Of a stretch of DNA of 64,000 bases, positions 1 through 63,172 are shown piece by piece. Position numbers and translations under genes: made by a program. The notes below the pieces were generated by a model, which saw nothing but the letters and a program-made list of their open reading frames with translations, was not told where the DNA came from and ran no database searches. Each line of letters begins with the position of its first letter. Position 1 is the first letter of the stretch. Where the stretch lies: the IMG/VR virus record IMGVR_UViG_3300009110_000335; one strand, given 5' to 3'. Source of the stretch: a virus.

Positions 1-1
1 A

Positions 2-3000
2 AGGGCAACATTAACGTATGATGTTGTATCAACTGGTTCAAACACAGACAGTTGTACTTGGGTTGACTTGAGAGCAAACAAACCATCAACATCAAGTGGT
101 AGTACAATATTCAGCGACTTTGGAAATTCATCTTATGATATAATGACTGGTGATACTGATTGTGAAACCGTTGGAACTGATAAGGAAATAGATGTCACAT
201 CATACGTAAATGACGCAGTAACAAATGGAAGAGACTGGTTTGCAGTAGGTGCTTTCTTTGATGGTTATAGAACTGGTCATTATCCTAGTTCTTACGGTGG
301 TTGGACAGCCAACAACTTTAGAGTTGATCTTGCATCACAAGTTGAGCAACCACCAACATACCACATCGGAACCCAACCTGACGGTGCAACTAACCCACTC
401 GCAGTCATTGACGAACTACACGTACACGCAGACGCAGAAGAAACCGTAGTTGAAAAGTCATATGATAGAGGCAGTGCAACATTCCAACAAGTTGGTGCAA
501 ATGTACCATTCACAACTGAAGGAGCCCAGAAGACATTTGCCGATACATCAGTATCACCAGGAGATGCACCAATCTATAAGATTAGTTCTTACAACCTACT
601 AGGTGAAACTGAGTTACAGGCATTGGTTCAGGGCTTAACCGTACAGTTAGCAAATGCACCTACAAACTTAGCAGCAAGTAGTACAGTTAATGCAGATATT
701 CAATTATCATGGACAGCAAGTACTGATCTTGGTGGTGGTACATTGTTGGATTACGAACTCCAGAGAAGAACCCCACCTACAACTGGAACATGGATCACAG
801 TATCAAATCCAACAACTACATCATATCTTGACACCAATGTCAATACAGGTACAACATATGAATATCAAGTAGCAACAAATAATGAGGCAGGAACAGGTGC
901 ATATTCATCACCAGTATCACAACAGGCTGGAATACCACCTGATCCACCAACCATAACATCTGTCACTATACCAAATCCAAATACACAACCACATGATCAT
1001 TTCATAGAGTGGACAGCCCCATCAAATCTTGGTACTGCTGGAAGTTTAACGCATTATGGAATATACTATCATGATGGAACAGGCTGGCAGACAGCTAATG
1101 CAAACATTGGAATACCAAGTCCTCTAGAATGGACATTCTCTGCCCCAACACCATTCCAAGTAAACCAATTGTATCAGTATAAGATGGTAGCAGTTAGTGC
1201 ACATGGAACGTCAAATGATAGTAATATTGGCAGTGTAACTACACCTAACGTTCCTGACCAAGTCAGTCCAGCACCTGGAGTTGCAATTGAGGATCCAGAC
1301 GCATTCCCATTGAAGATTAAGGTATCATGGACTACACCAGGTGACGGTGGCTCAATAATCAAAGGGTATCAGATAGAAAGATGGGATGTCATAAATGGTT
1401 GGACAGTACATGTGGCTAATACGGCAGTTACTGATATTACATATGAAGATACGTTGAATGTATTACAGGATACAGAGTACAAATACAAAGTTGCAGCAAT
1501 CAATACAATGGGAACAGGATTGCCTAGTCTTGAATCACCAGCCATAACTACGCCTAGAGTACCTGATGCCCCAACAAACCCAACTTCAGCAATAAATGAT
1601 ATTGTTAATGCCCCAATGGTTGTTACATTGGGTTGGACAGCCCCAGCAAATGACGGTGGATCCGCTTTGACAGGGTACAATATCTATGAGCAGATAGCAG
1701 GAGCTGGATGGAGTGCAACCCCAATAGCAACAGTCGGTCCAACCGTAACAACATATGACCATACAACAACACAGACAAACACACTTCATGAATACCGCTT
1801 TACAGCAACAAATAACGTAGGTGAGAGTGCATTCAGTACAACCACATCAGTGACAACTCCAAGTGAGCCATCACAACCAACAGGTCTTACAGTAACACCG
1901 ATAGATCATGATACCTTACAGTTAGATTGGACTGCACCAACAACTGCTGCTAATGGTGGTCAGTTATCACCTGTAACAGGATACAAGATAGAGTTTGAAA
2001 CACCACCAGGTAATGGTTATGTGATATTAGAGGCTGATACAAGTCCAGATACTTCAGTGACATATACTCATAATGGATTAACAGGTGGTGTTGAGTATCA
2101 ATACCAAGTATATGCAATTAACCTAGCTGGAACGAGTTTATCATCAACTGCAGCATTAGGTCTAACAATGCCTGGCGCACCAACCAACTTAGTTATCACA
2201 CAGCCAGCATCAAGTGGTATTGAACTTGATTTGACTTGGACAGCACCAGCTAACAATGTAGCAAGTTACAAGATTGAGAGAGAATCACCAATAGGTGGCG
2301 GTTGGTCAGTAGTGGTTGCAGATACATTATCATCAGTAACTGCATATACAGATGACAATAATGGTGCAGGTTTATCAACTGCAACACTGTATAATTACAG
2401 AGTTTCAGGCATAAACCAATCTGGAACTGGTCCAACCAGTAATGAAGATGACGGAACAACTCTAGCAGACGCACCATCAAATCTTACAACATCATACACA
2501 TATACAGCACCAAATGAAATTGATCTAAGTTGGACAGCCCCATCAGGTGCAATTACTGGTTATCAAATTGAACGTGCAGATGCACAAGTACCTGGTGTTT
2601 GGACTGCCATTGTAACTGATACAGGTAATGTCAATACAACATACAAAGACAGTGATAATATACAGTTATCAAATTCATATGCTTACAGGATATATGCATG
2701 GACTGCTGGTGGCTTATCACCAATGGTATCAAACACAGCATCACAAGTTACAGTGTCGGCACCTGATCCACCAACAAACCTAGTGGTTGGACCATACAGC
2801 GAGATAGGAAGTAATCAAAGAATTATGAAACTTGAATGGGTTGCACCATCTAATACAGGACTTGGTGGTAGTGAAGTACCAATCATAGGATATAAAATTG
2901 AACGTAATATCAGTGGTGCAGGTTGGTTAACATGGGTACCTGATACACAAAACGCAGTTAACAGTGCATTGAATTACAACTTAGCAGACAATGAGATTTA

Positions 3001-4153
3001 TGAATATCGTGTATCAACAATAACAGTTGTTGGAACAAGCGGTCCATCTAATACTGTTAATGCAGAGTTTGTTGTAATGAACCAAGCCCCAACTGCACAA
3101 GCCATAGCAGGAAAGACAGTAGGAATAACACCTATTGTTACAATTGACAATGGTATAGATACACCAGAGATATACAGAATATCATTATATGTTGATGAAG
3201 GACAAACTGGTGTATGGAAGTTTGATAGAGACTATACAGTAGATGCATTACAAAGCGCATGTAACTCCACAATGGAGTTGCCAAAGGACATAGCAAAGAG
3301 TGCATCATTCAGTTTCTGTCCAATGTTTACACAAGTAAATGGTGCAAGTGACTTCTACTTCCTTATGTATGCAACACAGGATAATGGCTTAGTTGACGAT
3401 GATAACACATTCAGAGTAACACAATCACCAACAGTATCAATAACACCATTAGCAATATTTGAGGGCAATGTACAAGGTGTAGAGAAGAGAGCACAGAACT
3501 GTACTGACTTTGATAACTCAGTATGTCCACTTGACTATGACGAATCAACAGTAAACATCAATGCAGACTCTGGTGATCCTTATGACCCATACTTTAACAT
3601 GACACTCAGATACCAACACCAAGACTTGAAGAAAGACCCTGAAGTACGATCCTACTATAACGTACTTAATGTAACAGATAGTTGGGGTGGATATTCACCA
3701 GAGGTACCATCTAATGAACCAGGAATCGAGGATGAAACAACATACTACATCTCAGTATATGTGAACCCAGGCGCAAAATGTGCTATAAACCCAGATAGTG
3801 GTGAACAAGCAGATTGTTTCGATATGGTAGCAGCAGATACTAATGATAGTATTCCAGCAGCATATCCAGCAGATTTGACATTGATTTCCAGAAAATCACC
3901 TGATGCACAACCACAATTAGGTATTGAGCCTATGGGAAATTTGTTCGGAATGCCGATGGTCTTTATGTTTATTATTGGTTTGGCAGCAGTATTCACAGGT
4001 AGATCTGCTCAAATGGGTGGTATTATCATAGCAATGGTCATAGGCGTAATGTGGTATCTAGGATACCTAGACTTTAGTCAGCTTGACGGAACGTGGATTA
4101 TGATTATTGTAGCAGCAATAGTAGGTCTATTCATAGGAAAGCGCTGGAGTTAG
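2..4153 (+). CDS. Large fibronectin type III repeat surface/adhesin protein with C-terminal membrane anchor (5'-truncated)
   Basis: The frame is open from base 2, so the true start lies upstream of the window. About 8 FN3-like repeats (P.AP.NL...LSW.AP...GG..I.GY.IER...Y.YRV.A.N..G.S..S) are followed by three hydrophobic segments (LFGMPMVFMFIIGLAAVF...IIVAAIVGLFIGKRWS). Confidence 0.9.
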   Translation, partial: RATLTYDVVSTGSNTDSCTWVDLRANKPSTSSGSTIFSDFGNSSYDIMTGDTDCETVGTDKEIDVTSYVNDAVTNGRDWFAVGAFFDGYRTGHYPSSYGGWTANNFRVDLASQVEQPPTYHIGTQPDGATNPLAVIDELHVHADAEETVVEKSYDRGSATFQQVGANVPFTTEGAQKTFADTSVSPGDAPIYKISSYNLLGETELQALVQGLTVQLANAPTNLAASSTVNADIQLSWTASTDLGGGTLLDYELQRRTPPTTGTWITVSNPTTTSYLDTNVNTGTTYEYQVATNNEAGTGAYSSPVSQQAGIPPDPPTITSVTIPNPNTQPHDHFIEWTAPSNLGTAGSLTHYGIYYHDGTGWQTANANIGIPSPLEWTFSAPTPFQVNQLYQYKMVAVSAHGTSNDSNIGSVTTPNVPDQVSPAPGVAIEDPDAFPLKIKVSWTTPGDGGSIIKGYQIERWDVINGWTVHVANTAVTDITYEDTLNVLQDTEYKYKVAAINTMGTGLPSLESPAITTPRVPDAPTNPTSAINDIVNAPMVVTLGWTAPANDGGSALTGYNIYEQIAGAGWSATPIATVGPTVTTYDHTTTQTNTLHEYRFTATNNVGESAFSTTTSVTTPSEPSQPTGLTVTPIDHDTLQLDWTAPTTAANGGQLSPVTGYKIEFETPPGNGYVILEADTSPDTSVTYTHNGLTGGVEYQYQVYAINLAGTSLSSTAALGLTMPGAPTNLVITQPASSGIELDLTWTAPANNVASYKIERESPIGGGWSVVVADTLSSVTAYTDDNNGAGLSTATLYNYRVSGINQSGTGPTSNEDDGTTLADAPSNLTTSYTYTAPNEIDLSWTAPSGAITGYQIERADAQVPGVWTAIVTDTGNVNTTYKDSDNIQLSNSYAYRIYAWTAGGLSPMVSNTASQVTVSAPDPPTNLVVGPYSEIGSNQRIMKLEWVAPSNTGLGGSEVPIIGYKIERNISGAGWLTWVPDTQNAVNSALNYNLADNEIYEYRVSTITVVGTSGPSNTVNAEFVVMNQAPTAQAIAGKTVGITPIVTIDNGIDTPEIYRISLYVDEGQTGVWKFDRDYTVDALQSACNSTMELPKDIAKSASFSFCPMFTQVNGASDFYFLMYATQDNGLVDDDNTFRVTQSPTVSITPLAIFEGNVQGVEKRAQNCTDFDNSVCPLDYDESTVNINADSGDPYDPYFNMTLRYQHQDLKKDPEVRSYYNVLNVTDSWGGYSPEVPSNEPGIEDETTYYISVYVNPGAKCAINPDSGEQADCFDMVAADTNDSIPAAYPADLTLISRKSPDAQPQLGIEPMGNLFGMPMVFMFIIGLAAVFTGRSAQMGGIIIAMVIGVMWYLGYLDFSQLDGTWIMIIVAAIVGLFIGKRWS

Positions 4154-5901: not shown

Positions 5902-5915
5902 AATTTAATTTTATA
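5902..5915 (+). promoter_or_regulatory. Class-1 (putative late) promoter AATTTAATTTTATA
   Basis: Exact motif ending 26 nt before the ATG at 5941. Confidence 0.7.
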
Positions 5916-7137: not shown

Positions 7138-7578
7138 ATGAGTCAGGAAGATGTACAGATCAGCTCTACTCGGAACGAGATACAGCGACCAATCACATCA
7201 CAAGGAAACTGCAGATGTGTCCACATTAACCAGAGATCAAAAACCGAAGGTACACCATATAGGAAGGGATGGTGCCAGAAGTGTAGGTCATGGGTTTACA
7301 CAGAAAAGACATTCTGTATATGTTGCAGAAAAAGAGTAGCCCATAAGACACATCATCTAAGAATGAGAAAGATCCTAAATGGTGCTGTTGAGATACATGA
7401 GTCACAGATTAAATGGTTCAACGATAATCCATCAACCGAACTGGTGTATGTTCAAGTTACTTTCATGGACAGGAAGTATCAGATCCCTCTCCAAATACTA
7501 GGTGAGTGGGTAGAGAACAAACATCCTAATGACACATTAGAATTAGCACAAGATACTGTTTGTGTGGTGAGAGGATAA
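7138..7578 (+). CDS. Zn-finger protein
   Basis: The ATG at 7138 directly follows the upstream stop. Motifs CRCVH, WCQKC and CICC. Confidence 0.65.
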   Translation: MSQEDVQISSTRNEIQRPITSQGNCRCVHINQRSKTEGTPYRKGWCQKCRSWVYTEKTFCICCRKRVAHKTHHLRMRKILNGAVEIHESQIKWFNDNPSTELVYVQVTFMDRKYQIPLQILGEWVENKHPNDTLELAQDTVCVVRG

Positions 7579-7694
7579 TGTGTTTAGATATTAGAGCACT
7601 ATTCAAAAGAAAGAGAAAAGAACCAAAAGAGAAAGAAAACCATTATACAGATGAGATGAGTAAGGACTTCTGGTACAGGAAACCAGACGACTAA
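7578..7694 (+). CDS. 38-aa charged microprotein
   Basis: TAATG overlaps at both ends suggest translational coupling. Confidence 0.5.
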   Translation: MCLDIRALFKRKRKEPKEKENHYTDEMSKDFWYRKPDD

Positions 7695-7819
7695 TGAAAT
7701 GCAAAATATGTAATAACTCATCAAAACACACTTGTTTAAGAAAGACTAAATGCTGGACTGAGTATGGTATGTGTGGTAGATGTGCTAAAGAGTATAAGAG
7801 GATCGTAATTGAAGTGTAA
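7694..7819 (+). CDS. 41-aa Zn-finger microprotein (paralog 1)
   Basis: MKCKIC...TKCWTEYGMCGRCAK; its start overlaps the upstream stop (TAATG). Confidence 0.65.
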   Translation: MKCKICNNSSKHTCLRKTKCWTEYGMCGRCAKEYKRIVIEV

Positions 7820-7967
7820 AGAATGTGGTAGAACCAAACGTAATGGTATGTCAAAAACAAAGTGTTGGTTAGCATATAGAATATGTGGAAGATGTGCTAG
7901 AAGGTTACACCCTGAATTATATGCCGATTCATACACTAAACGTATTGCGAATCTAAAGAACGTGTAG
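7809..7967 (+). CDS. 52-aa Zn-finger microprotein (paralog 2, TTG start)
   Basis: KCKEC...TKCWLAYRICGRCAR is clearly paralogous to 7694-7819. Confidence 0.6.
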   Translation: MKCKECGRTKRNGMSKTKCWLAYRICGRCARRLHPELYADSYTKRIANLKNV

Positions 7968-7975
7968 GTGGAAAT

Positions 7976-8605
7976 ATGGGGGTGAGGCAATTACTAATTA
8001 AAGAAATACCACACAAGTTAGCCCAAAGTATTGTTGTTGAGAAACACTATCTACACAGAAAAGCACCGTGTTCGTACTCGTGGGGGCTATATGAGAAAGA
8101 CCAAATAGTGGGGGTAATTATGTATGGAACGCCTAGTTCAGCACCACTTAGAAGAGGCATAGCAGGGGATGATGAGAAGGATAATGTTATTGAACTTACA
8201 AGATTATGGATAGATGATAAGATAGGAAAGAATGCCGAATCGTACCTAATAGGCAATACGGTAAAGAAAGTAAACAAAGAGATAGTGGTATCGTATGCAG
8301 AGATAGAGCAAGGACACCTAGGTACAGTATACCAAGCATGCTCGTTTTTGTACACAGGACTGTCAGCGAAAAGAACCAATTGGGTGGTAGAAGGGATCGA
8401 TAAGCATTGCCAGACGATTGCAGATAAACACACCTCAGAAGAACTAAAGGCAAAGTATGGATCCAAGTTCAAGCTTGTACCAAGACCAAGAAAGCATCGC
8501 TATGTGTTTATCAATGCCAAAAAGAAACGACGAATGTTATTATTAGATAAACTGAAATACAAAATACAGGAGTACCCTACAAATGAAAGTATTGATAGCA
8601 TGTGA
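7976..8605 (+). CDS. Mom-like (GNAT-fold) DNA adenine modification protein
   Basis: Family motifs EKHYLHR, GVIMYGTP, IELTRLW, NAESYLIG and VVSYA..EQGHLGTVYQACSFLYTG. Confidence 0.75.
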   Translation: MGVRQLLIKEIPHKLAQSIVVEKHYLHRKAPCSYSWGLYEKDQIVGVIMYGTPSSAPLRRGIAGDDEKDNVIELTRLWIDDKIGKNAESYLIGNTVKKVNKEIVVSYAEIEQGHLGTVYQACSFLYTGLSAKRTNWVVEGIDKHCQTIADKHTSEELKAKYGSKFKLVPRPRKHRYVFINAKKKRRMLLLDKLKYKIQEYPTNESIDSM

Positions 8606-9149
8606 GTGTTCTGGACGAATAAGAGACGCCTTTAGGAATCTGGGTCATGATGCATGGTCATGTGACATTAAACCAGATGAAAATGGCAATGATAAATACC
8701 ATATTCAGGACGACGTGTTGAACCATTTAGACGAAGGATGGGATATGATGATAGGACATCCAGTTTGTACTTTCATATGCAGAAACAGAGCAAGACTGAA
8801 TACATTACAAAAACGTACAATAGATACAAGTCTATTTACAACATTAATGAATGCAGATATACCAAAGATATGCATAGAGAATCCAGTACCATCCAAAGCA
8901 GCAGGATTGCCAAAGTATACACAGATTATACAACCATATCAGTTCGGTCATGACCATTCAAAGAAAACATGTTTGTGGTTAAAGAACCTGCCAAATCTAA
9001 CACCAACTAACATAGTAAAGGTGACATATGTGGTAACACAGAATGGTCACAAGTACACTAGAGGTTGGTATGAGACACCTAGAAACTCAACAGATAGAAG
9101 TCGAACATTTTTAGGTATAGCCAAAGCAATGGCAGATCAGTGGGGTTAA
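8583..9149 (+). CDS. Short phage-type DNA cytosine methyltransferase-like protein
   Basis: MKVLIACECSG.IRDAF...GHDAWSCD (SAM-binding region), HPVCT (catalytic PC-like), IENP, IQPYQFGH, KKTCLWLKNLP and RSRTF.GIAKAMADQWG. Confidence 0.75.
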   Translation: MKVLIACECSGRIRDAFRNLGHDAWSCDIKPDENGNDKYHIQDDVLNHLDEGWDMMIGHPVCTFICRNRARLNTLQKRTIDTSLFTTLMNADIPKICIENPVPSKAAGLPKYTQIIQPYQFGHDHSKKTCLWLKNLPNLTPTNIVKVTYVVTQNGHKYTRGWYETPRNSTDRSRTFLGIAKAMADQWG

Positions 9150-9176
9150 TATACCAAATACAACAATACCCAGTAC

Positions 9177-9320
9177 AATGAACCATAGTAATTATGACAC
9201 CCAAAGAAATGGTATGAATCAAATTTCATATGAAACCCAGCCTTGCTTTGTGAATCATCGTTTATTTGAAACCCAAGGCACGAATATGAACCAAAAAACA
9301 ACTGAACCCCATTCTACAAT
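9177..9320 (+). ncRNA. TIGR-like dual-spacer guide array B (orphan; 3 full units plus flanking halves)
   Basis: Edge repeats TGAc/aA/cCCCA at 9195, 9231, 9267 and 9303 (exact 36-nt period). Loop repeats (TA/TG/AA)TGAA(T/C)CA at 9177, 9213, 9249 and 9285. All intervening spacers are unique 9-mers. Confidence 0.85.
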
Positions 9321-9354
9321 GTGAACTTTATACGATAGTATGCCCTACTGATTA

Positions 9355-9449
9355 TGTGGTAGGGCTTGTCTTCACTACAGTCAACGAGGTAGTGGTCATT
9401 CAAGTCAGGTTTCATATTCAGGTACGGGGTTAGTCATTGCCCTACCACA
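9355..9449 (+). ncRNA. Candidate ~95-nt structured small RNA with paired termini
   Basis: TGTGGTAGGGC (9355-9365) is the perfect reverse complement of GCCCTACCACA (9439-9449). There is an internal CACTAC/GTAGTG hairpin, and CTTTATA ends about 23 nt upstream. Confidence 0.45.
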
Positions 9450-9478
9450 CATTTTATAATTAGCAATAGAGGGATCGA

Positions 9479-9607
9479 ATGCAGATGCAACAAACAGATG
9501 ATGAAAACGGTTCTCTAGGCATGAGTGTATGTAATTCGTGCCTAGAACCGACCGGTTGTACCGACGGGTACCCCAATGTTCATATGTGTTTTGTACGTAG
9601 TAGTTGA
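9479..9607 (+). CDS. 42-aa Cys-rich microprotein
   Basis: MQMQQTDDENGSLGMSVCNSCLEPTGCTDGYPNVHMCFVRSS. Its stop abuts the next ATG, and TTTTATA lies upstream at 9452-9458. Confidence 0.45.
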   Translation: MQMQQTDDENGSLGMSVCNSCLEPTGCTDGYPNVHMCFVRSS

Positions 9608-10084
9608 ATGAAACCACAAAAACAAGAAGATATACTGTTAGTAGCAGAGAGTTTTTTTCATCTGGATACTGACAAAGATGCATACGCCAAAGGATTGACG
9701 TTAAGGCATGACCTAGAACTCAGGAACTCAACTCTTGGGAAAAGGAAGTACAAACTGTATACAAGAAACGACAAATTAGCAACCGACATGATCAAGCGCT
9801 TGGGTACACCGACTGAGGAAATACCTGATGCCAAATGTATTGTACTTGGTAAACACCTAATGATTCCTGATCCAGATAATAGACCAAGAACTGAAGAACC
9901 GTTATGTAATCATGACTTTAGACAGCTTGCAGGATTCAATGCCTATGTCTGTAACAAGTGTAATGGAATAAGCGAAGATGGAATAACCACAACTGCAAGA
10001 GTGGAAGTCACGAGTGGTAAGAAAACAGCAGTGATTGAGGACATCGGCGGTGTAGTCACAGTATCACCAAAGAAAGAAAAGTAG
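9608..10084 (+). CDS. Hypothetical protein with Zn-ribbon (CNH...CNKC)
   Basis: 158-aa ORF on the coding strand. Confidence 0.65.
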   Translation: MKPQKQEDILLVAESFFHLDTDKDAYAKGLTLRHDLELRNSTLGKRKYKLYTRNDKLATDMIKRLGTPTEEIPDAKCIVLGKHLMIPDPDNRPRTEEPLCNHDFRQLAGFNAYVCNKCNGISEDGITTTARVEVTSGKKTAVIEDIGGVVTVSPKKEK

Positions 10085-10114: not shown

Positions 10115-10420
10115 ATGATATTTGAGAAAAAAGGCACAGATGGGAAAACCAAGTTCAAAGTTGTAGTTAGTGATAAAGCATTGTTTCGATACCTTGAAAC
10201 AATAAGAAAGGCATGGAATGATCATAATCATGATGCGTTTCTGTATGAAAGACAACGAGCATATGACCATGAAGAACTTTTGAAACATTTGAAAGGCAGG
10301 ATTAGTTTTAATTATAAAGAAAATCTGTACGGATTAAAATCTAGAGAGGCTATGCAAATGATAATGGACTGGATAGACAAAGAAATAGGAATAGGGGATA
10401 GAGAACAGTATGGAAGTTAA
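10115..10420 (+). CDS. Hypothetical protein
   Basis: 101-aa ORF preceded by the SD-like GGAGGTGA. Confidence 0.7.
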   Translation: MIFEKKGTDGKTKFKVVVSDKALFRYLETIRKAWNDHNHDAFLYERQRAYDHEELLKHLKGRISFNYKENLYGLKSREAMQMIMDWIDKEIGIGDREQYGS

Positions 10421-10579
10421 AGAAAGAAAAAGTAGGCAAAAAGAAAGAAAAGGGTAGTAGTTCAGGGGGACCTGAACAATAAAAATTTGGACCGAAAGCA
10501 AGCGTAAGTGGGGGCGTATATATAAGCAGGCATGTACGGTTAGGCACACGTTTAAGTAGTCTAGGCATAGGCATTAGGT

Positions 10580-10750
10580 ATGGTCAAGTTCTATAACATG
10601 TACTTACGAGTTAAAGAGGACGTTCCTGATAAGGATGTATCAGCCAAGAAGTTACCAAACGGTAGATTCCAACTGATAGGAAAATCCAAGAAATCACCAG
10701 GAAAGAAACTGTATAAATTCGCAAGTGCAGAAGATGCAAAGAAATACTAG
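10580..10750 (+). CDS. 56-aa basic CC1-like archaeal chromatin/nucleoid protein
   Basis: MVKFYNMYLRVKEDVPDKDVSAKKLPNGRFQLIGKSKKSPGKKLYKFASAEDAKKY. The KFY...G...G.K.Y pattern resembles Thermoproteales CC1 as I recall it. TTTAAGT ends 23 nt upstream. Confidence 0.55.
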   Translation: MVKFYNMYLRVKEDVPDKDVSAKKLPNGRFQLIGKSKKSPGKKLYKFASAEDAKKY

Positions 10751-10780
10751 TTTTATAAATAAGCATGTGGAAGGATAGAC

Positions 10781-10900
10781 ATGCCTATTGTAAAAAAGAC
10801 AAAGTCTGGTTTTAAGGTTATACACAAGTATACGGGAAAAACACTCATGACAACTAAATCGAAAGCGAAGGCTTATGCCAGAAAAAATAAAGGATACTAG
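10781..10900 (+). CDS. 39-aa Lys-rich basic microprotein
   Basis: MPIVKKTKSGFKVIHKYTGKTLMTTKSKAKAYARKNKGY, with TTTTATA ending 24 nt upstream. Confidence 0.65.
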   Translation: MPIVKKTKSGFKVIHKYTGKTLMTTKSKAKAYARKNKGY

Positions 10901-11030
10901 TTCCGTAGGAACGAAGATAACAAAGGATAGCCTAGAGGCTGACAGGGTTGATACATTATTGAGACAATATGAAACAGGTACAATTACCCGCGCAGATTAT
11001 TATAGGAAGTTGAAGGAGTATAGGGTGTGA
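10875..11030 (+). CDS. 51-aa protein with SHOCT-like C-terminus
   Basis: LLRQYETGTITRADYYRKLKEY resembles the SHOCT pattern. Confidence 0.4.
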   Translation: MPEKIKDTSSVGTKITKDSLEADRVDTLLRQYETGTITRADYYRKLKEYRV

Positions 11031-11046
11031 ATATGATTTTAGAGAT

Positions 11047-11205
11047 ATGGAGTTGTGTCGCAAAATGAGAAAATACGGAAACACCGGAGTATCGATGCGA
11101 GAGATCGCGAAGGTGGCAGGAGTGACGACAAGTACGTTGATGGCAAGTGTGCGTTTGTTAGAACCATACTTTGATGAATTAGAAGAGAAAAGCCCAAAAA
11201 TTTAA
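11047..11205 (+). CDS. 52-aa helix-turn-helix DNA-binding protein
   Basis: GVSMREIAKVAGVTTSTL is a canonical HTH motif. Confidence 0.6.
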   Translation: MELCRKMRKYGNTGVSMREIAKVAGVTTSTLMASVRLLEPYFDELEEKSPKI

Positions 11206-43652: not shown

Positions 43653-43698
43653 ACGTGAATAATGAATCAACCACTTATCAAAATCCCTTTTTTTACTT

Positions 43699-44067
43699 AT
43701 GAATTATAAATTGAATCCGCAATTCTACAGGAAGCATATCACAAATGGTCTTATCAAACAGACCATGAGAGTGTTTGTCTTACTACCAATGAAAAAGACC
43801 CCGCATGAATGCGAATTATGTCAATCATTCAATAGTAACATATTGATTAAACACAAGGTAGACCATGATCTTTATCACTGCCTGAATAAATTTTTGATAC
43901 TAGAATACATAAAAGTTACAGAAGACGATAAAAACCTAATAAGATATTTGGATAGAAAATGGTTAAAGATAGGACCAAGACTTATAGAAGAGTTCAAAAG
44001 GATGGATGCTGATAGTTGTGGCGAATGTAGTCAACAACGTGAAAGCATTCCTATCCGTTACAGATGA
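43699..44067 (+). CDS. Hypothetical Cys/His-containing protein
   Basis: CELC...KHKVDH motif. Confidence 0.55.
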   Translation: MNYKLNPQFYRKHITNGLIKQTMRVFVLLPMKKTPHECELCQSFNSNILIKHKVDHDLYHCLNKFLILEYIKVTEDDKNLIRYLDRKWLKIGPRLIEEFKRMDADSCGECSQQRESIPIRYR

Positions 44068-48016: not shown

Positions 48017-48988
48017 TTGGGTAAACCTTCAGTGAAAGTCGGCGATAAGGATCCGCAAGATATTCCATTAGAACTTCCTATGAGTATTATGAGAGTTCTT
48101 GTTGAGATGTATTACGACTTCCAAAAGACAAGAATAGAAGCGGGAAACCGTGCCTTAATGAATGCCGAAAGAAATAGCATTACTGAGGAAGACCTTGAGA
48201 AATATGGTGTCAAAGACATCTTTGATGCGGCAAAGAAATTTGAAGGCGCAATACAGAAACGTATCGAAGTTGACCTTCCTAACAAAGCAATTTTTAAGAA
48301 TTATCTAGATAGTATCCAAGGAATTGGACCAATACTTACTGCAGGCTGTATGGCATATGTAGAAGATATTGAAAGATTCGATAAGGTTAGTGCACTATGG
48401 CAATATTCTGGATATGGTCAAAACACATTCTGTCCTGACTGTTCCACAGATAAGACGAAAGCATGGACATATGTTGACGTTGAATATGAGGGAGCCGATG
48501 GTAAAACAAAGAAAGTGAAACGATTACGTCCATCTAAAACATGTAACAAATGTGGTCATGACACAGAGAATGCAAGACAGCAAAACTCAGCAGGATTTCA
48601 AAGTAACTGGAATCCAAAGATCAAGGTGTTATTCTGGAAGGCAGCAACTAGTTTCATGAAACAACAATCTGCAAAAAGCGGATATAGAAAATTGTATGAA
48701 CAATACAAACGTGAACTAAGGACAAAATTCCCATCAAAACTTAAAGATAAAAACGGTAAAACAAAATATAACGATGGTCATATCAACAACATGGCTCTGA
48801 GAAAGGTCTCAAAGGTATTCATGCAACATGTATGGATAGTCTGGAGACAGATCGATGGTCACACAATATCTAAACCATATGGTGCGACTGGAGCCAATCA
48901 CACCTACTTGGAGCCATTTGTTGATAAACCAAACAAAGAATTTGATAAAATTTTGAAGGAGATTCAAAAGAGTCTAAAGGGGGTGTAA
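48017..48988 (+). CDS. tasA: Nop-domain (IS110/Nop5/Prp31 superfamily) RNA-guided DNA-binding protein, TasA-like, no RuvC, with Zn-ribbon insertion
   Basis: Coiled-coil LVEMYYDFQKTRIEAGNR and HhH YLDSIQGIGPILTAG..AYVEDIERFDKVSALWQYSGY. Insertion CPDC...CNKC, then NWNPKIK..FWK.A.SFMK...YRKLYEQYK...GHINNMALRKVSKVFMQHVWIVWR. No N-terminal DEDD domain. Adjacent 36-nt dual-spacer array. Confidence 0.85.
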   Translation: MGKPSVKVGDKDPQDIPLELPMSIMRVLVEMYYDFQKTRIEAGNRALMNAERNSITEEDLEKYGVKDIFDAAKKFEGAIQKRIEVDLPNKAIFKNYLDSIQGIGPILTAGCMAYVEDIERFDKVSALWQYSGYGQNTFCPDCSTDKTKAWTYVDVEYEGADGKTKKVKRLRPSKTCNKCGHDTENARQQNSAGFQSNWNPKIKVLFWKAATSFMKQQSAKSGYRKLYEQYKRELRTKFPSKLKDKNGKTKYNDGHINNMALRKVSKVFMQHVWIVWRQIDGHTISKPYGATGANHTYLEPFVDKPNKEFDKILKEIQKSLKGV

Positions 48989-49143: not shown

Positions 49144-49155
49144 CCGAAGGTCGCG

Positions 49156-49400
49156 TGAAACCCAAAATGGGTGTGTGAATCAGCAATCATATGAACCCCA
49201 TAAAGCACTTATGAATCAAAGTATAGCTGAACCCCATGGTATGAATATGAATCAAAGTAGTTTTAGAATCCCAGAGAATCCATATGAATCATCGGCATAG
49301 TTAAACCCAGAAAGAAATTATGAATCCGAACCATGTTGAATCCCAAGATATGAGTATGAATCAAAACGGTCCTGAAAACCAAGAGGTATAGTATGAGTCA
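49156..49400 (+). ncRNA. TIGR dual-spacer guide-RNA array A (7 units, 36-nt period)
   Basis: Edge repeats TGAA(A/C/T)CCCA-like at 49156, 49192, 49228, 49264, 49301, 49337 and 49373. Loop repeats TATGAATCA-like at 49174, 49210, 49246, 49283, 49319, 49355 and 49392. Unique 9-nt spacers lie between them. Confidence 0.9.
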
Positions 49401-62495: not shown

Positions 62496-62782
62496 CATTA
62501 AAAGAACAGAAAAGAGATTATCGCCAAAAGAACAGAGAAAAATTAAAAGAACAGAAAAGAGATTATCGCCAAAAGAACAGAGAAAAATTAAAAGAAAAGA
62601 GAAGAGAATATTACCAAAAGAACCCTGAAAGGATAAAAGAACGACAAAGAAAGTATAACCAAAAGAACAGAGAAAAATTAAAAGAACGACAAAGAAAGTA
62701 TAACCAAAAGAACAAAGAAAGAATAAGAAAACAGAAAAGAGAGAATTACCAGAAGAATAAAGAAAAATTAAAAGAGGAGTAA
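62492..62782 (+). CDS. Basic 15-aa repeat protein (KEQKRDYRQKNREKL)x~6
   Basis: 45-nt tandem repeat; the first two units are identical (starts 62497 and 62542). Confidence 0.7.
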   Translation: MTLKEQKRDYRQKNREKLKEQKRDYRQKNREKLKEKRREYYQKNPERIKERQRKYNQKNREKLKERQRKYNQKNKERIRKQKRENYQKNKEKLKEE

Positions 62783-62788
62783 AAAGAA

Positions 62789-63172
62789 ATGACTAGAAAA
62801 ATACATCATATAGAAATAGCACAAGAGATGCAACTCAAAGCCTCACAAGATGCTCATAATATGTTATATGAAAATAAGTGGAGAAATAGAGAAGATGACC
62901 TCTTGAAAGCTGGCACTGGAACTATGTGCTTTAATGATGATAATGAATTTGCATTTCAAGTTGAAGGGTTTAAGGTATCTGGTGGAAAAAAACACGCAGT
63001 GATAGTGTACTTTGAATCAGATAAAATATGGTTAAGATATGGAATACTACCAATGCCAAAAAGATATGAAGATGTGGTTGATGTTAAAATTGATAAAGAA
63101 TACAGCTACAAAGAAATTTTCAAATTTCAACAAGAGTTCACAAAAATTATTGAGAAGGGAAAATCGAAATGA
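62789..63172 (+). CDS. Hypothetical protein
   Basis: 127-aa ORF. Confidence 0.6.
   Translation: MTRKIHHIEIAQEMQLKASQDAHNMLYENKWRNREDDLLKAGTGTMCFNDDNEFAFQVEGFKVSGGKKHAVIVYFESDKIWLRYGILPMPKRYEDVVDVKIDKEYSYKEIFKFQQEFTKIIEKGKSK

Follow-up and report, generated by a model that had tools for sequence, protein, structure and literature searches.

The window (the whole 64-kb stretch of viral DNA that was analysed) contains a genuine dual-repeat TIGR array in a remote position. This array, array B, occupies positions 9177-9326 on the + strand and consists of four tandem 36-nt units and a truncated final edge. Published TIGR loci have the array adjacent to a tas gene, but the nearest and sole tas gene of the window is 38.7 kb away (tasA start to array B end). 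The first-pass annotation had put the distance at about 40 kb; the remote position holds and the figure is corrected. Array B is probably a working array and a second guide source for the single TasA of the window, which also has an array of its own (array A). The features concerned are the following.

8583-9149, + strand: DNA methyltransferase gene (phrog_757, E 9e-48), context and not part of the TIGR system
9146-9177, + strand: array B leader, with a TATA-like TTAATATA (9146-9153) placed 24 nt ahead of the first edge's ATG
9177-9319, + strand: array B, four complete TIGR units (edge 9 nt, spacer A 9 nt, loop 9 nt, spacer B 9 nt; last spacer B 8 nt)
9320-9326, + strand: truncated terminal edge TGTGAAC; the array of the related contig L101 ends with the same truncated edge
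9342-9365, + strand: terminator-like hairpin (GCCCTAC-loop-GTAGGGC, then TTGTCTT), 16 nt past array B
48017-48988, + strand: tasA, 323 aa from a TTG start (318 aa if GTG 48032 is the start), with a Nop domain and without a nuclease domain
49156-49399, + strand: array A, six units (one of them 37 nt long) preceded by a half unit and closed by an edge-like repeat; its edge and loop repeats are those of array B

The units of array B start at 9177, 9213, 9249 and 9285, which bears out the exact 36-nt period claimed earlier. Each is built of a 9-nt edge ([A/T][A/G]TGAAYCA), a 9-nt spacer, a 9-nt loop (TGAMMCCCA) and a second 9-nt spacer. The loops read TGA..CCCA in all four units. Two of the four edges contain TGAACCA and two TGAATCA, and the TCA variant is the majority form in array A. 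All eight spacers differ from one another, as had been claimed. Their sequences had been quoted accurately, but the last one was given 9 nt and has 8, and the truncated edge thus lies 35 nt after the last unit start. Alternating repeats of 8-12 nt, spacers of about 9 nt, a unit of about 36 nt and UG/CCA boxes (UG, or box D, opening both repeats and CCA, or box C, closing them, with edge and loop co-varying), which characterize dual-repeat TIGR arrays, are all present. The end of the array (TGTGAAC at 9320-9326, followed by the hairpin at 9342-9365 with its T-rich tail) also resembles published array ends, in which the array likewise finishes with a 3' truncated edge (PMC12045711).

The edge-N9-loop pattern has nine matches in the 64-kb window, compared with 0.53 expected from shuffled sequences, and nine or more matches were obtained in none of 100 shuffles. 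All nine fall in the two arrays, four in array B and five in array A (49176-49381). The array B matches are free of mismatches in both repeats of each unit, while three of the five array A matches have one or two. A sequence-only unit model, built from 16 units of both window arrays and one relative, found 9178-9326 (best E 3e-9) and 49147-49400. The pattern matches and the model together uphold the first-pass claim that the edge and loop consensus is that of array A, and scanning the window with a profile of both arrays, as had been proposed there, added one marginal solitary match (E 0.065). This match (43662-43706, ATGAATCA-N9-CAAAATCCC-N-ATGAATTA) is a degenerate TIGR-like unit in the intergenic gap before the ORF at 43699 and may be a relic or a chance occurrence. 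Tandem Repeats Finder detected neither TIGR array in the window, because half of each unit is variable.

The protein encoded at 48017 is homologous to solved Tas proteins. Its best match is TaTasR (PDB 9MTY; E 5.6e-30), with TasR residues 109-318 aligned; as the alignment begins at residue 109 and there is no N-terminal extension, the RuvC part is absent and the protein is a TasA. It also matches SpTasH (21kl; E 1e-9) and the Pfam family Transposase_20, an IS110-type signature. Y288 and H295 of TasA align with Y289 and H296 of SpTasH, which are catalytic residues in metal-independent cutting of pre-tigRNA (PMC13421893). A C-terminal Tyr/His dyad is typical of dual-repeat binders, and since the pair is kept in TasA, processing in trans is plausible by sequence. 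A Nop domain homologous to those of solved Tas proteins, the dyad and the lack of RuvC or HNH domains are the features expected of TasA. Searching the 64-kb window by tblastn with six Tas proteins gave a single match, 48017-48985, and no second tas gene, in agreement with the earlier statement that no Nop-domain gene is near array B. Array A follows tasA after a small ORF. Its repeats are more degenerate than those of array B, and the two arrays have no unit in common.

Array B is base-identical in ten contigs that carry an identical methyltransferase gene (from JGI and ENA, several samples; the longest is 104.6 kb) and is therefore stably kept within the lineage, not decaying. Four contigs with an identical gene downstream of array A are identical over the 5.3 kb around tasA and array A. 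Variation was found in relatives, as the first-pass annotation had anticipated for the spacers. A contig from DNA run X10 is 99% identical over 8741-9185, joins to 9285-9326 and then continues into new repeat-bearing sequence. A 280-nt contig from the RNA-library run X21 has the ends of X10, 100 other letters replacing 9186-9287, and X10's continuation. Units 1-3 of array B are replaced in this variant.

Scanning for the X10/X21 continuation retrieved two further metagenome contigs, L101 and L102. The flanks of L101 are 80-97% identical to the window, with 97% identity over the 150 nt past the array. L101 has a 10-unit array beginning at the mom stop codon, and only one of these units, B4 (unit 4 of array B, with both spacers), is shared. 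After B4, L101 has a full edge and one further unit, and then the truncated edge as in array B. It follows that the window form has lost exactly one unit between edge repeats, or that L101 has gained one. Ten further contigs carry an identical copy of the L101-type array.

The position of the array relative to tasA could be followed in a second lineage. A single-sequence TasA query of viral_contigs found no relatives; a protein search identified a TasA cluster 94% identical to the window TasA. One member (P0023) is encoded at about 18.5 kb on contig k141_720461 (68,577 nt). The same contig has the L101-type 10-unit array at about 57.4-57.7 kb, on the strand of tasA, at the homologous site and 38.8 kb upstream of tasA. 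The remote array layout is conserved across two lineages.

Directly after the 94%-identical tasA genes come arrays of 16-19 units. Three whole units (A2, A3, A5) are common to these and the window array A, in a different order. Between lineages, units are common only as wholes and no spacer is shared singly. Judged by sequence, array B is evolving like array A, with repeats, leader and trailer kept and whole units exchanged, and the way in which units change resembles recombination between repeats. In genomes whose TasA is identical or 94% identical, the unit number of array A is 16, 18 or 19, and the changes fall mid-array (L122-L125:3476-4310, L118:3480-4175). Two array A guides of this set have spacer A CAATCTGTT in common and either TGATCTGCT or GTGCTCGAA as spacer B. 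Natural data of this kind on TIGR array turnover are rare; in the lineage comparison, whole units are gained, lost and reshuffled between repeats.

These comparisons bear on whether array B could be an inert relic, meaning a TIGR array fragment that was left by duplication or translocation and has lost its expression or loading. The array is short (4 units, compared with 10 in L101) and resembles a deletion derivative that lost one trailing unit exactly between edge repeats; it has no strong promoter motif directly upstream, and no target was found for it. Decay should, however, alter repeats and not swap whole units, and the repeats of array B fit the consensus without mismatch in all four edge-N9-loop matches, better than those of array A. 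Its identity across ten contigs, and the persistence of a homologous array with intact repeats and different units in a lineage with flanks only 80-97% identical, also speak against an inert piece, and this explanation is unlikely.

All sizeable ORFs of the window are on the + strand, as are both arrays. The element originates from marine metagenomes and encodes TFIIB/TFB. The TFB and a strict promoter motif 24 nt before the ATG indicate an archaeal virus-like genome with leaderless mRNAs. This strong motif (AATTTAATTTTATA[A/C], 24 nt, ATG) is found in the window at 5902, 11199, 14993, 15490, 16571, 16648 and 16849. Array B is placed between the motifs at 5902 and 11199, and the motif scan of the window gave no strong motif in the tasA region. 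There is a weak hint in the sequence that array B and tasA may be under separate regulation, and this is also the one hint towards the first-pass idea that the two arrays may act at different infection stages. The distance from the end of the TATA-like box of array B to the ATG is 24 nt, the same as in the strong promoters, and the box itself resembles the strong motif only weakly. TTAATATA overlaps the methyltransferase stop codon. About 30 of 34 nt of the leader are the same in L101, despite the fact that mom and not the methyltransferase gene is upstream there; in L101 the leader falls within the mom coding region. The leader is inferred to be a candidate promoter.

The 24-nt spacing would also suit a gene with a leaderless mRNA, and 9178-9324 could be read as a small protein gene (48 aa, 12-aa repeats). 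The frame runs from just within the first edge to the truncated last edge, its ATG lies 24 nt past the TATA-like box as at leaderless genes, and on the L101-type array an ORF of 48 aa was predicted by gene callers. The conservation is nevertheless at the nucleotide level and exactly in the RNA motifs (UG...CCA), the "peptide" is wholly different between lineages save for the repeat-encoded residues, and the frame is shifted by 35- and 37-nt units in L101 and array A. In 77 units there are 17 in-frame stops, a marginal deficit relative to the 24.7 of shuffled spacers (p about 0.05), so arrays of this repeat type are normally interrupted. Only about 16 codons of a four-unit array could be stops, and by estimate a fraction of about 0.3 of such arrays would be open by chance. 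A coding function is very improbable: the ORF was rejected as a gene and is most likely due to chance, given the barely depleted stops, the frame shifts and the lack of peptide conservation.

The MTase-like gene that had been noted upstream of array B is a DNA methyltransferase gene indeed. It is separated from the array by 28 nt and preceded by a Mom-like gene. L101-type genomes lack the methyltransferase gene, and the array there abuts mom. A diverged copy of the array B leader is found at the mom/methyltransferase junction (8556-8590 against 9150-9182; L101:1290-1330). The leader copy and the L101 layout fit an insertion of a methyltransferase cassette between mom and the array, as far as sequence comparison can suggest. 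The methyltransferase gene was tried as a synteny anchor and dropped: of 511 viral relatives, 80 loci were retained and showed no array downstream (the 21 closest were also read directly downstream), which identifies it as a widespread cassette.

Downstream of array B, the 5' arm of the hairpin (9342-9348) varies in L101 and L102, while the 3' arm TGTGGTAGGGC (9355-9365) and a distal partner GCCCTACCACA (9439-9449; also given as 9439-9450) are invariant in both. The hairpin may therefore be part of a separate conserved structured RNA. The region 9326-9460 (L101:1685-1815, L102:130-270) is 91-97% conserved, though the arrays of these relatives differ. A TATA-like CTTTATA begins within the truncated edge of array B. 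The fold z-score of 9326-9460 is only -1.0, and an Rfam search of 8900-9800 gave no meaningful match. The region is possibly a separate structured small RNA or the trailer of array B. Further downstream, L101, L102 and the X10 contig lack a 279-nt segment (9625-9903) of a 158-aa ORF (9608-10084), and a 65-aa ORF remains there.

Array B could also serve another Tas-like protein encoded beyond the window and not the TasA at 48017. Contigs of the same virus (104-112 kb) run at least 43 kb to the left and at least 69 kb to the right of the window, and their coordinates imply a genome well over 110 kb. Large viruses can also carry several arrays, as the viral contig G001 described below does. The edge and loop repeats of array B are, however, those of TasA's own array, and TIGR repeats co-vary with their Tas protein (PMC12045711). 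The left side offers little room nearby: a gene for a 3579-aa protein takes up the 10.7 kb to the left of position 4153 in the window, which puts any tas gene further left at least 15.8 kb from array B, likewise remote. No protein-search match outside the TasA cluster exceeds 56% identity, and P0002, the single one that was examined, lies in a syntenic locus of a different virus. A second Tas partner is thus quite improbable, and the identity of the array B and array A repeats points to TasA as the partner.

The 5'-open ORF at window positions 1-4153 is the end of that 3579-aa protein, which has Laminin_G_3, fn3 and Gly_rich_2 domains according to the gene calls of relatives. A 45-nt tandem repeat of about six copies is located at 62497-62790. 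Two long contigs of the same virus (records L095 and L100) end at about 62.6 kb of the window, probably at an assembly break in this repeat. The GenBank phage collection has no DNA match to the window, and an exact 32-mer of the window gave no match in viral_contigs. The sole protein match to TasA in this collection is a gene of Microcystis phage Mvi-JY20. Labeled "hypothetical protein" (PP438412.1:21541-22053), it shows distant homology to Tas/Nop proteins (24.5% identity, with 72% of TasA covered, E 2e-10).

An independent case was found by an exact scan of IMG/VR for the repeat pattern. Three of the nine stretches detected are on G001, a 237-kb viral contig rated 95% complete. One array lies at 58.1 kb, two sub-arrays occupy 134.6-135.0 kb and a further array is found at 165.3 kb; all share one strand. 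At 45.3-46.6 kb G001 encodes its sole Tas homologue, a Nop-domain protein of 434 aa (E 8e-17 to 9MTY). The nearest 11 kb on one side of this gene and 12 kb on the other are free of arrays, and the four arrays are 12, 89 and 120 kb from it. At 134.6-135.0 kb (L082:5601-6005), each sub-array is followed by the same element of about 55 nt with a GCAGG...CCTGC hairpin, which resembles a repeated array trailer. Another candidate orphan array, L087, was rejected because a divergent Tas gene adjoins it. The first-pass annotation had supposed that guide cassettes can be placed independently of tas. The differing contexts of the remote array (methyltransferase here, mom in L101) fit this, as do the G001 arrays 12-120 kb from tas.

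The 280-nt X21 contig, which comes from an RNA library, spans the 3' end of the methyltransferase gene, the array B variant and further units. It is weak evidence of array transcription; it may be DNA carry-over, and contigs hold no strand or end information. In another RNA run (X19), the covered parts were 7497-7883 and 10263-11067, and array B was not among them. Targets were searched for with the 10 guides of the window and 8 guides of L101 in both possible 18-bp geometries. None was found at up to 2 mismatches in the window, and 1.03 Mb of related loci gave only 2-mismatch matches at chance level.

If array B works as proposed, it would be transcribed on the + strand, with transcription either beginning at a TATA-type leader of its own or reading through from mom and the methyltransferase gene. 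The transcript would presumably be cut within the edge repeats to give four 36-nt tigRNAs, and these would be loaded in trans on dimers of TasA, the single nuclease-less Tas protein, whose gene lies 38.7 kb downstream. TasA would in this way be supplied with guides from two separate arrays. By analogy with characterized TasA proteins, the two 9-nt spacers of each guide may pair with opposite strands of an 18-bp DNA site, and TasA may then block transcription or another DNA transaction without cutting. TasA proteins are RNA-guided transcriptional repressors (bioRxiv 10.64898/2026.09.09.750476). The targets would lie outside this genome segment.

Published surveys had a search range that ends short of such arrays. 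Faure et al. 2025 looked for arrays within the 5 kb flanking tas on either side and described them as upstream of the gene, downstream of it or both (PMC12045711). Xu et al. 2026 used flanks of up to 10 kb (median 5.4 kb) and reported 6,685 arrays for 20,096 tas loci (bioRxiv 10.64898/2026.09.09.750476). Arrays were thus found at about a third of tas loci, and array B is beyond the 5-10 kb covered (PMC12045711; bioRxiv 10.64898/2026.09.09.750476). Whether "arrayless" Tas proteins have another guide source was left open by Xu et al. 2026 (bioRxiv 10.64898/2026.09.09.750476). A full-text literature search on orphan TIGR arrays returned nothing relevant.

The case for remote arrays consists of an array conserved 39 kb from tasA in two lineages, its whole-unit turnover like that of the adjacent array, and the G001 arrays, which are only distant ones. 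This suggests that an array at a great distance from the protein gene can supply guides to RNA-guided TIGR systems. With remote arrays in use, guide inventories, and hence target predictions, would be incomplete unless whole genomes are scanned. A broader view is that remote, self-contained TIGR cassettes (leader, units and trailer) are a general and overlooked feature of large viral genomes, and that one Tas is fed in trans from several arrays tens of kb away, possibly under different temporal promoters. This generalization is tentative, and its chance of being right falls slightly short of even. If true, remote cassettes could account for some of those two thirds of tas loci without an array within 10 kb, and for the "arrayless" Tas branch.

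In its repeats and units, array B is like the arrays of dual-repeat TIGR-TasA systems such as FpTIGR-TasA of Flavonifractor plautii: edge and loop repeats with UG...(C)CA alternate, the spacers are 9 nt and the unit 36 nt, a truncated terminal edge is followed by a hairpin, and a nuclease-less Nop-domain Tas is encoded in the same genome (PMC12045711). In contrast to described TIGR-TasA arrays, which are beside or inside tas and were sought within 5-10 kb (PMC12045711), it is 38.7 kb off, in another gene block and additional to a tas-adjacent array. The closest solved relative of the window TasA, TaTasR from a Thermoproteota archaeon, shares with it the Nop domain, coiled coil, wedge region and dual-repeat arrays with UG/CCA boxes. 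The N-terminal RuvC nuclease of TaTasR has no counterpart in the window TasA, which starts at the equivalent of residue ~109 and has an extra Cys-rich insert.

The layout is also similar to that of CRISPR arrays, orphan or remote, that serve a distant cas locus in trans; there the array is apart from the effector and has its own leader, matching repeats and independent spacers. The TIGR proteins and RNA architecture are unrelated to those of CRISPR, and TIGR is not known to have adaptation machinery.

Canonical box C/D sRNAs carry box C (RUGAUGA) and box D (CUGA). Neither motif is present in the repeats of array B, which makes host box C/D proteins unlikely users of the array. That array B feeds the host box C/D machinery (Nop5-fibrillarin-L7Ae) for RNA methylation, and not TasA, is extremely improbable also because its repeats match those of the tasA-adjacent array. 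The idea draws on an archaeal host for a virus that encodes TFB, and on the Nop fold shared by Tas and Nop5 and the mimicry of box C/D RNAs by tigRNAs (PMC12045711). As a guide source for TasA, array B is nonetheless comparable to dispersed archaeal box C/D sRNA genes, whose scattered guides are loaded in trans on one Nop-domain dimer, with two guides per RNA. Box C/D sRNAs have canonical C/D boxes and direct 2'-O-methylation of RNA, whereas TIGR guides are arrayed, need cutting and are expected to target DNA. Array B is a known kind of system in a new layout, one that published surveys were not designed to see.
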